Assembly (NCBI GenBank): GCA_963712745.1
Contig: CAVQJC010000020.1
Span: 320,001-384,000, forward strand
Length of the DNA stretch: 64,000 bases
Source of the DNA: an uncultured Chloroflexia bacterium
GTDB taxonomy: Bacteria > Chloroflexota > Limnocylindria > Limnocylindrales > CSP1-4
Direction of reading: 5' to 3'
Shown: positions 15,001-18,262 of the stretch, in pieces
How the letters are laid out: each line of letters begins with the position of its first letter
Numbering within the stretch: position 1 is the stretch's first letter
Notes under the pieces: generated by a model
Told to the model about the DNA's origin: nothing
Databases searched by the model: none
The model's input: the letters and a program-made list of their open reading frames with translations, nothing else
Program-made: the position numbers and the translations under genes

Positions 15001-18000
15001 GGGTGTCGCCGCCAAGTCCGCCGCCGAGGGCGAGCTGCCGCCGGGCGTGACCGAAGGCGATCTGGGCCTGCCGCCGGGCACGGTCGAAGCCGACGCCAAG
15101 GCTCGGGCTGAGGCCGAAGGCAAGACCGACGCCGAGCTGGACGCCGAGGCCCGAGCAGAGGCCGAGAGCCGGCAGGTCGGGGGAGCAGAAGGCGACCCCG
15201 AGCTGGATCTCGACAACAGGCCCGGCGAGGTCGATGTCGACACGCCACCGGTGAACCGCTCGGAGCCGCCACCGATGCGTCAGCCTGGCGACGCCAACCT
15301 CGACGATACCCTCGTCGACATCCCGGTCGACATGAACCAGCCGCGCATGGACGACGTGGGCAAGCCGCTCTCGATGAACGACCTCGAGACCCGCTACGGC
15401 ATGCCCGCGGACAACGTCATCGCCATCGACAAGATCGCCCGTGAAACGGGCGTAGTCATCGACATCCGGCCAACCAACAAGCACGCGGCCGAGCTGCTCA
15501 AGGGCAAGAACGCCCTGCCCAAGCCCGCCCAGATCAAGGCCAAGACCCTCAACGAGATCGACGTGATGATCGGCCTCGGCTCCGATGCCGACCTGGGCAA
15601 GGTCTTCGTGGTGCCCGACCCGTCGCGCATCCGGCGCCCGGACGGCTACGGGCCGGACATGTCCGAGGAGCTGCGCGGCGCCATAGACAAGCGCATCAAG
15701 CAACGCCTCGAGGAGTATGCGGACTTCAAGAAGAAGCTCGACAAGATGGCCGCGGGCGAGAATCCGCTCATTCGCATCGAGGAGAACGGCCTCATCGTCA
15801 ACACCGGCCTGAAGCCGAAGGGCGGTGAGCTGCCATTCACGGGCGACCACGACCTCTTCGATATTCGGCGGGCGGACGGCACCAAGCTCTCGCTCGAGGA
15901 GTACGAGGCCATCCGTGACCAGCTGATCGAGGCGGGCGTCGGCATCGAGCACGGCTCGGTCGTCGGCTGGCGCACCGACTCACCGACCACCTTTGAGACC
16001 CCCGAGGGCAAGAAGGCCTACGAGGGCATGATGCAGACGCACATGGAGGGCGGCAGCGAGCCGCTCGTGCGTATCGGTGCAGGCGACCCCCAGGCGGTGA
16101 TGTGGAGACCGGCATTGCCACCGGCGGGGACCAGGGTCGATCCCGGGGGCGTGGCCCACATCCCGCCTAAGGTCTCGCCACTGCCGGAGGGCTCGGTCGG
16201 CCAGCTCGATGGTCCCGACGCCCTCGACCCGGCCGCGAACATGGAGTTCTTTCGCAACTGGATCAGGGATGATCCCCACCGGGAGGTCGGACTCCTCTAC
16301 AACAGCGAGACCGGCCAGTACGCCGTGGTCCAGGGTGCGGGCACCTGGGTCAACACCCCGCACAAGCTGGGCAATACCCGCTGGATGGAGGACCTGCTCG
16401 ACGCCGAGAACGTGGGCGAGGGCATCTGGATGATCGTCTCCCACAGTCATCCAGTCGAGCTCGGAGGCAAGATCACGCCCGGCTGGGCACAGTGGCCGAG
16501 CGGCGCCGACGGCGACTTCGGAGCCATCGCGTGGCAGGCCCGCATGGTCAACGGGCCCGCCCAGGGAGACATCGAGTACACGACCTTCAACGCAGCCGGC
16601 GAGCCAGAGCTGCGCACGATGAAGTACGGCTTTGACCCCTTTGCCGAGAACCCCTACTGGATCAGCCGGCCCGAGTTCCCCGGCCAGGAGTATCGATTCC
16701 AGACGGCAGAGCAGTACCAGCAGTGGTACGAGAGCCACTACCACGCTCCCGCGGCGGAGGCTGCGGAGGCCTCGGGCGCCGTCAGGCCGAGCGACGTCGA
16801 GGGCACCGACCCGGCGGTCGCGACCACGCGGCCTGGGGAAGGCGACGCGCCCGACGCCGATGTGACCGAGGAGATCGAGCCGCCACCGGCCACCTCCGGC
16901 GACACCACGCAGGAGTGGGACGCCGACCAGACGCAGGAGTTCGATGCCGACCAGACGCAGGAGTTCGAGCCACCGACGAAGCGGCGTGGCTCGGATCAGA
17001 GCGACGAGGTGCCGACCGCGCCGTGGGATGCCGAGCAGACCCAGGAGTGGAAAGTCGACAAGACGGCGGCCAACGATCCCGGACAGACCGGCGTCAACGA
17101 CCCGGACAAGACCCAGGTCTACGACCCCGACAAGACCCAGGAGATCGAGCTCCCGCCGACGAAAGGCCAAGCCACCAGCCTGGAGGACGCGGCCGAGCCA
17201 TGGGCAGAGGCGGACACCGAGATCATCGACCTCGACGAGCTGGACACGATCCCCGATCTGCCGACACTGCCGGAGGACACGATGCCCGATCTGCCGGTCG
17301 GCCGCGGCCGGGGCGAGTGGGAGACGCCGCCCGGCACATCCGCCGGCCCGAGCCATGGCCCTGCCGAGCCGTGGGCCGAGGCTGACACCGAGATCATCGA
17401 CCTCGACGAGCTGCCGGCGACGAGTGGCAATCCGAAGGCGCTACCGCATGACCAGCTGCCGCTGGAAGTGGAGCCGGACGCGGACGCCGAGCTCCGCTTC
17501 AGGGGTGGCGGCGCCGACCCGCACCAGACGCGCGAGTACTACTCGCGCCACTCCCGCGAGGGGATCGAGCGACGCCGCTCGCACATGCCCACCGAGAAGG
17601 AGCTCCTGGGCCTGCCGGCGGGCCACGTGACCCAGTTGCCCGGTGCCAGCAAGTTCGACGGGCGGCTCAACCGCGAACGCTTCGAGCAGCGTGCCCTGCT
17701 CGACATGGACCGCGAGATCGCCCTCGTCTACAACAAGCACACCGGCCAGTACGCGATGGTCCAGGGCGAGCGTAGCTCGGTGGCCATGGAGAGCGAGCTC
17801 ACGGCCGTACTCGCCGGCGACACGGAGTGGCAGGCGATGGGCTGGGTCATCCTGGCGCACACGCATCCCCGCAGCGCAGCGGAGCTCGAGACGAGCGCGG
17901 CCAACCGCTGGCCCAGCCTGGCCGACTGGAACGCGCTGGCGCTGCAGTCCCACCGCTACCCTGGCACGCAGCAGAGCGAGGTCAAGTTCTTCGCTAAGAA

Positions 18001-18262: not shown

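Follow-up and report, generated by a model that had tools for sequence, protein, structure and literature searches.

The subject of this study is a pair of domains, D1 and D2, in a giant protein (P0001) encoded beside a contractile injection system (CIS) of an uncultured Chloroflexia bacterium, on a stretch of 64,000 nucleotides (contig CAVQJC010000020.1, positions 320,001 to 384,000), which we call the window. Structural models of the two domains give good support to placing them in the JAB/MPN (JAMM) fold of metal-dependent hydrolases, as a highly divergent clade that lacks annotation. Judged from protein architecture and gene neighbourhood, this clade appears to be a hallmark of the giant modular toxins that are linked to CIS. 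The reading that we rank highest, and to which we give a little under an even chance, is that D1 is a constant, cis-acting processing metallopeptidase, and that D2 is an extra copy in the slot otherwise used for toxin cassettes.

Two paralogous domains and their predicted fold

The G+C content of the window is about 70%, and the codon-position G+C of the giant open reading frame (ORF) follows the pattern typical of a real gene. In the public databases the protein is represented by an entry (P0153) that starts at Met18 (nt 9026) and has 3078 amino acids (aa). From the N-terminus, it is composed of a low-complexity third, an annexin block, a hydrophobic segment, a cyclase-like module, D1, a linker and D2 (Table 1). 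A first-pass annotation, made from the letters of this DNA, had placed a tandem pair of JAMM-like domains at 16240..18170, at the C-terminus of the protein. Both domains are indeed there and extend slightly beyond those limits (16178-16768 and 17621-18199), but the terminal position applies to D2 alone; about 500 residues lie between the end of D1 and the stop codon, and the two domains are 290 aa apart.

The same annotation had called the two domains clearly paralogous, and this was borne out. All the strings it quoted lie in frame in one ORF, and D1 and D2 matched each other with 29% identity over 181 columns (BLASTP, E 6e-18, single comparison). They are true paralogs. A conserved LPxGxVxQL strand opens both domains, and the F-x-[TS]-x-E-x-Y motif that it had noted in both starts the predicted C-terminal helix of each model. 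Identity between D1 and D2 is 29-31%, against 36-40% between D1 and the best-matching copies of other phyla. In a FastTree phylogeny of 145 copies D2 forms a long branch, with a patristic distance of 3.15 between D1 and D2 versus 1.97 between D1 and its nearest foreign neighbour. No copies of the domain other than D1 and D2 occur in the source genome.

A profile built from D1 and D2 was searched against 1.84 billion representative proteins and gave 181 matches at E<=1e-3, 91 of them at E<=1e-10. From the 150 matches listed among these 181, together with P0001, we obtained 145 domain copies, each covering at least 140 profile positions. Across these copies, the residues corresponding to His2490, His2492, Asp2514 and Gly2454 of D1 are invariant (145/145 each), Glu2437 is kept in 144, the other having a gap, Asn2443 is kept in 140, and position 2509 has Ser in 136 copies, Thr taking its place in the other nine. 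As far as aligned sequences can tell, the conservation of Glu, His, His and Asp is the pattern of a catalytic metal site. Further family motifs are TGEY[IV]V[VI]QG and the N-terminal LPxGxVxQ strand. The E...HxH...S-x-x-D signature named in the first-pass annotation thus stands as a family-invariant motif, and D2 fits it as written; in D1, however, the invariant Asp is D2514, giving S-x4-D, and not D2512. A spacing pattern matched 136 of the 145 copies and left nine unmatched; in the matched copies the gap from Ser to Asp is four residues in 125 and two residues in ten, D2 being among the latter.

These counts bear on the idea that the domains are silent MPN scaffolds of the Rpn8 or CSN6 type, serving only in pairing or assembly, for example by D1-D2 pairing or by docking on the injection machine. 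MPN domains often act as dimers, and tandem copies do recur in the family, two copies being present in 6 of 151 proteins (P0001 and five others). However, silent MPN domains have lost the catalytic motif, whereas here Glu, His, His and Asp persist in 144-145 of 145 copies, neither D1 nor D2 lacking any of them, and most members have a single copy. We regard a scaffold role as very improbable. A prediction of the complex of D1 and D2 with two Zn ions scored 0.00 against a mark of 0.32, and is uninformative on pairing either way.

AlphaFold2 models were computed separately for the two domains from alignments of 31-32 rows. The model of D1 had a predicted local distance difference test score (pLDDT) of 87.1 and a predicted template modelling score (pTM) of 0.81, and that of D2 a pLDDT of 83.0 and a pTM of 0.79. 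In an exhaustive comparison with 48,161 PDB representatives, JAMM/MPN chains headed both lists and filled nearly all of the top ranks, with Z scores of 7.0-7.2 over 116-131 core residues. The closest chains to D1 were Sst2/AMSH (4jxe_A; Z 7.2, root-mean-square deviation (rmsd) 3.9, 122 residues aligned), JAMM1 of P. furiosus (5ld9_A; Z 7.2) and Rpn11 (4o8x_B; Z 7.1), followed by MPN subunits of BRISC/BRCA1-A, Npl4, the bacterial deubiquitinase 8tyy, which acts on a ubiquitin-like protein (Ubl), Cap3 (9ild), CSN5 and AfJAMM. For D2 they were Rpn11 (Z 7.0, rmsd 5.2, 127 aligned) and JAMM1 (Z 7.0). RadC (2qlc) appeared in both lists with Z 4.4-4.7 (4.4 for D1) and cytidine deaminases with Z 3.8-4.7, in each case below the JAMM rows. 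Foldseek gave a ranking in line with this, with BRCC36, CSN5 and Rpn11 as its best rows. Structure prediction thus agreed with the JAMM-like fold that the first-pass annotation had proposed. A library of viral structures returned weak rows only, some of them with MPN or JAB names and none at E<=1e-3.

The placement of the conserved residues points in the same direction. In both models Glu precedes the first core strand, HxH lies at a strand end and Asp caps the next long helix, which is the arrangement of JAMM proteins; in D1 the elements concerned are strand 26-31, which Glu just precedes, strand 73-79, which ends with HxH, and helix 102-112, with Asp at its N-terminus. When the 145-copy profile was aligned with Prok-JAB proteins by hhalign (not significant, E 0.065), Glu, HxH, Pro-Ser and Asp fell in register, with insertions of nine and two residues. 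The Z scores are below the method's caution line of 8, so the structural matches alone are moderate evidence. What makes the JAB/MPN assignment convincing is that two paralogs were modelled independently, that one superfamily stands at the top of both lists, that the residues are placed as expected, and that the hhalign alignment is in register. A deaminase-like warhead had also been suggested for the pair. The D1 segment contains no Cys at all in the D1/D2 alignment, which makes a PCxxC zinc motif impossible and excludes a deaminase.

Compared with known JAMM/MPN+ proteins (Rpn11, AMSH/Sst2, BRCC36, CSN5, archaeal JAMM1 and the Prok-JAB/Mec type), which supply the best structural matches of both models, D1 and D2 carry Glu, HxH, Ser and Asp in the same order and on corresponding elements of secondary structure. 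In contrast, the clade has no significant sequence or profile match to them, carries about nine extra residues between HxH and Ser, mostly has S-x4-D in place of S-x2-D, and is embedded in toxins of 1,000-3,000 aa with no Ubl partner found. D1 and D2 fall outside every curated sequence family of the JAB clan that was tested (JAB, Prok-JAB, RadC, DUF4329 and Toxin-JAB1), and the domain family has no Pfam or NCBIfam model. As leads, the nearest clusters of D1 by protein language-model features were labelled Toxin-JAB1 and DUF4329 (0.92-0.93) and Prok-JAB, with an overall range of 0.90-0.93. Two other candidates were set aside. For D2, rows of YchJ/NTF2-like type (E 0.018 in Pfam; E 2.7e-4 in NCBIfam, where the score of 21 bits falls short of the cut-off of 188) were taken as chance, because both models are MPN-like and no NTF2 fold was found among the structural matches. 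Cystathionine gamma-synthase, the top PDB row with a two-row profile (E 0.012), spans only the C-terminal 55 positions.

A constant domain among variable cassettes

The JAB-like domain is the one part of P0001 (aa 2401-2550) that is common to nearly all relatives (121-146 of 149), and it is usually internal. At least 162 residues follow it in 119 of 145 copies, some of the remaining copies being fragments at contig ends. The 127 tails of at least 60 aa fell into many unrelated similarity clusters, with 49, 8, 7, 7, 6, 5 and 5 members, besides seven pairs and singletons. Thirty homologs were scanned with Pfam. A recognised toxin or pretoxin domain was found in 14 of them, always C-terminal to the JAB-like domain: Ntox4 in eight, AHH in two, WHH/Colicin-DNase in two, and PT-HINT and DUF4951 in one each. 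Annexin repeats occur in 12, and 11 have no Pfam domain at all. As the domain is internal and variable toxins follow it in relatives, D1 occupies a constant position. The pair had earlier been described as duplicated warheads, and this holds only insofar as D2 sits in a cassette slot; the domain itself is a constant internal module.

Three relatives illustrate how the parts are exchanged. The colinearity of P0037 with P0001 starts at aa 598 and runs through D1; beyond it, Ntox4 takes the place of the linker and D2. P0007 shares 82% identity with P0001 over the block of aa 595-1816, extends into the linker and then ends without D2. In P0005 the cyclase-like module stands after the JAB-like domain and not before it. 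These architectures argue that D1 is the constant module, and that the cyclase-like module and D2 are shuffled like cassettes. From its sequence distribution, the cyclase-like module appears to behave as a mobile toxin cassette. It is found in six other representatives and in locus L028, and a coverage profile placed it in about 5-18 relatives; the annexin-bearing block (aa ~600-1750) is common to about 5-15. The name of the module comes from a weak Pfam match to Anthrax_toxA, the EF/CyaA/ExoY-type cyclase family, over 52 residues, with E 3e-4 and a score of 21.3 bits where 25 are required. A PDB sequence search with aa ~2130-2400 returned no match, and the cyclase label is tentative as a result.

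The linker between D1 and D2 contains six DxDQTQE[WF]-like octapeptides, encoded by two tandem arrays of 24-nt units (16907-16968 and 17057-17141), and a motif of 16 residues is exactly duplicated at aa 2741 and aa 2798. These repeats could be short linear binding motifs. At the other end of the protein, the low-complexity N-terminal third contains the motif LQRLAGNAA (9305-9331, + strand; aa 111-119). Of 151 family proteins, a good many of them fragments truncated at the N-terminus, 11 have it in their first ~110 residues, and it is also present in the giants of loci L022 and L030. A similar motif is presumably present in toxins with DUF4157, and LQRLAGNAA is possibly a CIS loading signal.

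The domain was found in Actinomycetes, Acidimicrobiia, Thermoleophilia, Chloroflexia, Gemmatimonadota, Planctomycetota, and Alpha- and Gammaproteobacteria. It is rare in the source phylum, where 2 of 401 sampled genomes have it, the source genome included. Members are annotated at source as 'hypothetical protein', 'Annexin' or 'polymorphic toxin type 4 domain-containing protein'.

A pattern scan with one genome per species yielded 26 related loci, among them actinomycete loci of Kibdelosporangium, Pseudarthrobacter, Rhodococcus and Microlunatus. The gene immediately upstream of the JAB-domain giant, on the same strand, encodes an Afp15-like ATPase in 11 of the 26. L022 has a complete CIS operon, in which the giant gene, coding for annexin, JAB-like and AHH domains, is placed between the genes for this ATPase and for the sheath. 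Pvc16_N was encoded elsewhere in 5/5 checked genomes of loci without CIS genes nearby, versus 0/14 control genomes. A Pfam scan of 15 ORFs from these loci matched the picture obtained with the 30 homologs.

A proposed processing peptidase and its alternatives

If D1 is a processing peptidase, a catalytic metal, presumably Zn2+, would be bound through His-x-His and Asp, as the fold and the conservation suggest; Glu would act as the general base and Ser would stabilise the intermediate, as in JAMM enzymes. D1 would then release the neighbouring cassettes, namely the upstream cyclase-like module and the downstream modules, from the annexin/hydrophobic part that is predicted to serve in membrane binding and delivery. 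This release would occur during or after injection. D2 would be a copy added later to the cassette slot, and may be either a second processing site or a hydrolase that is itself delivered.

The peptidase role of D1 is one that we infer from a resemblance to known CIS toxins. According to passages in Zhang et al. (2012, PMC3482391), the CIS ('PVC') toxins have a constant N-terminal zincin, the PVC-metallopeptidase, now called DUF4157 (eCIS_core); the toxins that come after it vary, Ntox4 being one of them, and annexin serves as an accessory. Autoproteolytic release was proposed there from this positional polarity, and second peptidase copies in the terminal toxin slot were noted (Zhang et al., 2012). 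The giants with the JAB-like domain likewise combine a constant metallopeptidase-like module with variable C-terminal toxins (Ntox4, HNH-type nucleases) and an annexin accessory, and the occasional second copy in the terminal slot recalls P0001. The differences are that DUF4157 is a zincin with HExxHxxQ, unrelated in fold and motif, and that it is N-terminal, whereas the JAB-like domain stands just before the cassettes. DUF4157 was detected neither in the 30 homologs nor in the 15 locus ORFs by Pfam; the giant protein itself gave no eCIS_core match at E<=1, and no HExxHxxQ occurs within its ORF. It is this combination, a constant position before variable toxins as in CIS toxins and yet no DUF4157, that led us to rank the processing-peptidase reading highest. 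The role proposed for the JAB-like domain is analogous to that proposed for DUF4157, HINT or caspase-like domains of polymorphic toxins.

A comparable organisation is seen in MARTX-like autoprocessing toxins, which are also giant and have a membrane-interacting delivery part, interchangeable effector cassettes and an internal protease-like module. The MARTX cysteine protease domain, however, differs from the JAB-like domain in protease fold, chemistry and export route.

A number of observations weigh against a processing peptidase of the JAMM type. At the level of sequence, D1 had no Pfam match at E<=10, Toxin-JAB1, DUF4329 and RadC included; the NCBIfam search gave no usable family for D1 or D2; and PDB searches with profiles of two and of 32 rows matched no JAMM protein. 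Pfam on 32 family members gave one Prok-JAB row (E 0.014) and one RadC row (E 0.32), both sub-threshold, and hhalign against 14 Prok-JAB proteins of the same clade was not significant (E 0.065-0.073). At the level of structure, the Z scores of 7.0-7.2 lie under the caution line, and the best Foldseek rows of D1 and D2 (BRCC36, CSN5 and Rpn11) do not reach E 1e-3. The spacing is non-canonical: textbook JAMM proteins have H-x-H-x7-S-x2-D, and here HxH and Ser are 15-16 residues apart in 123 of the 136 matched copies. The JAMM peptidases known to date cleave behind the C-terminus of ubiquitin-like beta-grasp proteins, and the domain borders showed neither a Ubl domain nor a conserved cleavage motif such as Gly-Gly; a Pro-rich linker and the LPxGxVxQ strand were the sole features there. 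D2 is followed by no module that it could release. Finally, 15 of the 26 related loci have no CIS gene within the fetched 10-kb flanks, several of them being on short contigs.

A different role would be that of a delivered isopeptidase, with D1 and D2 stripping ubiquitin or Ubl from proteins of the injected, possibly eukaryotic, cell. The nearest structures are indeed deubiquitinases and Ubl proteases (AMSH/Sst2, Rpn11, BRCC36, CSN5, 8tyy and Cap3 9ild), the giant protein carries annexin repeats of eukaryotic type, and D2 stands in the slot where relatives have a toxin. Annexin is also named among the eukaryote-like domains of extracellular CIS (eCIS) in parts of Geller et al. (2021, PMC8213781). 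However, the domain is the constant element and the tails are the variable ones; the recognised tails are mostly nucleases, which would work without a deubiquitinase; no similarity to ubiquitin-binding JAMMs was seen at the level of sequence; and D2 is missing from the closest full-length relative. We consider a delivered isopeptidase unlikely.

The domains might instead be directed at nucleic acids in the style of RadC, Tox-JAB-1 and Tox-JAB-2, and act as nuclease-like toxins. Tox-JAB-1 (Toxin-JAB1, PF15659) and Tox-JAB-2 (DUF4329, PF14220) are likewise JAB folds with E/HxH/S/D inside polymorphic toxins, and they are the nearest named neighbours of D1 by the language-model features, which serve as leads only. 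In passages of Zhang et al. (2012, PMC3482391) they are described as C-terminal toxin tips of RHS proteins, accompanied by immunity genes, and divergent toxin JAB clades are considered as possible nucleases. The presence of RadC in both structural lists would also fit this idea. Unlike these tips, however, the D1/D2 clade is mostly internal, linked to CIS and free of RHS, with no RHS repeats found by Pfam in P0001 or the 30 homologs. The first-pass annotation had pointed to toxin-JAB families, and no such match was obtained: the Pfam models of Toxin-JAB1, DUF4329 and RadC did not match D1 or D2 at E<=10, and the DUF4329 hidden Markov model had no match in any of five carrier genomes. Moreover, the peptidase-type JAMMs outscore RadC, and a constant nuclease ahead of variable nucleases is not parsimonious. 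A nuclease is improbable in our view, clearly more so than an isopeptidase.

Returning to the processing peptidase, the clade is in our view a third JAB clade in polymorphic toxins, one that is associated with CIS and has a probable processing role. We found no description of a CIS-linked JAB clade in the literature searched, although one could be listed in the supplementary material of Zhang et al. (2012) or Geller et al. (2021); the article PMC11297309 contains no mention of JAB, MPN, deubiquitin, annexin, Ntox4 or giant. A bolder proposal, which we hold to be rather doubtful, is that this is the first JAMM family acting as an intramolecular releasing protease, and that it defines a second, DUF4157-independent class of injection-system toxins: a JAMM domain between the membrane-binding part and the swappable cassettes would free the cassettes after injection, with the second copy here as cargo. 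If true, this would extend JAMM chemistry beyond ubiquitin-like substrates. CIS are being engineered as protein-delivery devices, and the natural loading, maturation and release of their cargo are little understood; this gap is stated with regard to DUF4157 in parts of Geller et al. (2021, PMC8213781). The reading offers a concrete, testable hypothesis for CIS cargo processing, and naming the domain provides a marker for many otherwise dark proteins of 1,000-3,000 aa.

The injection-system locus and its surroundings

The positions of the two domains, their motifs and the neighbouring genes are collected in Table 1. The giant gene lies beside a CIS gene cluster that also contains separate DUF4157 genes, and regulators of the GerE/LuxR and BTAD types, as well as such locus company, are reported for eCIS loci in parts of Geller et al. 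(2021, PMC8213781).

Table 1. Coordinates of the giant gene, its modules and motifs, and of neighbouring genes in the window
Feature	Position (nt)	Strand	Residues (aa)	Remarks
Giant ORF (P0001)	8975..18262	+	3095	3095 codons; codon-position GC 0.71/0.51/0.87
Best of three annexin repeats	13688..13855	+	1572-1627	Pfam Annexin, E 5.9e-27
Hydrophobic segment, Ala/Gly/Val-rich, transmembrane-like	14249..14380	+	1759-1802	Kyte-Doolittle scan
Cyclase-like module	15362..16174	+	~2130-2400	upstream of D1; weak, sub-threshold Pfam Anthrax_toxA match
D1, JAB/MPN-like domain	16178..16768	+	~2402-2598	internal position typical of the family
D1 string DPHREVGLLYNSETGQYAVVQG	16271-16336	+	2433-2454	
D1 Glu2437	16283..16285	+	2437	predicted general base
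D1 VSHSHP			2488-2493	
D1 His2490-x-His2492	16442..16450	+	2490-2492	predicted metal ligands
D1 WPSGADGD			2507-2514	
D1 Ser2509 to Asp2514	16499..16516	+	2509-2514	PSGADGD
D1 FQTAEQYQQW			2575-2584	
D1-D2 linker	16769..17620	+		acidic, Pro/Asp/Glu/Thr-rich, disordered-looking
D2, second, more divergent JAB/MPN-like domain	17621..18199	+	~2883-3075	C-terminal cassette slot
D2 string DMDREIALVYNKHTGQYAMVQG	17702-17767	+	2910-2931	
D2 Glu2914	17714..17716	+	2914	aligns with D1 E2437
D2 LAHTHP			2960-2965	
D2 His2962-x-His2964	17858..17866	+	2962-2964	
D2 WPSLAD			2979-2984	
D2 Ser2981-x-x-Asp2984	17915..17926	+	2981-2984	
D2 FASIEDYLEF			3047-3056	
Double zinc-ribbon + DUF7577 N-terminus	2309-4585	+		flanks the locus
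GerE/LuxR-type regulator	8116-8829	+		directly upstream of the giant gene
Unknown-family gene	18306..19163	-	285	convergent with the giant gene; no Pfam/NCBIfam match
Afp15-like AAA+ ATPase of injection system	19111..21252	-		NCBIfam AAA matches
Pvc16_N (cap/terminator) gene	21249..22031	-		Pfam E 7e-41
CIS core: sheath, tube proteins, VgrG-like spike, PAAR, gp25, Baseplate_J, Tail_P2_I	25734..36454	+		
DUF4157/eCIS_core gene	28350-30257	+		HExxHxxQ; separate gene
Double zinc-ribbon + DUF7577 N-terminus	36534-37679	+		flanks the locus
Large AAA + Trans_reg_C + BTAD regulator	37689-40721	-		flanks the CIS core
DUF4157/eCIS_core gene	40710-42053	+		HExxHxxQ; separate gene

The gene that follows the giant gene in convergent orientation has a homolog (36% identity, E 9e-37) at 11573-12343 of locus L028, in a metagenome-assembled genome of Acidimicrobiaceae. 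There it directly follows, on the same strand, a homologous toxin gene with the cyclase-like and JAB domains, and the 285-aa protein is a candidate immunity or accessory protein.

Related architectures were also seen outside the Chloroflexia. Alphaproteobacterial ORFs of 2,700-3,200 aa lie directly downstream of Afp15-like ATPases in loci L031, L034, L035 and L039-L043, and in these ORFs the JAB-like domain is located about 700-900 residues before the C-terminus. Pfam found no toxin or peptidase domain in these proteobacterial ORFs of ~3,000 aa, the one row obtained among those scanned being a sub-threshold Apolipoprotein match in L039. They thus belong to the large, 'dark' proteins associated with CIS.

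Two further observations concern the remainder of the window. A weak F5/8 type C (discoidin) domain is also present in the protein encoded at 36534-37679; as its gene comes after the baseplate genes, this protein could be a candidate for a tail fibre or for receptor binding. Further downstream, the ORF at 46083-50333 (+ strand, 1,416 codons) combines ComEC (Competence and metallo-beta-lactamase) with a DNA polymerase III delta C-terminal domain, and may be two adjacent genes that were read through by the ORF caller.

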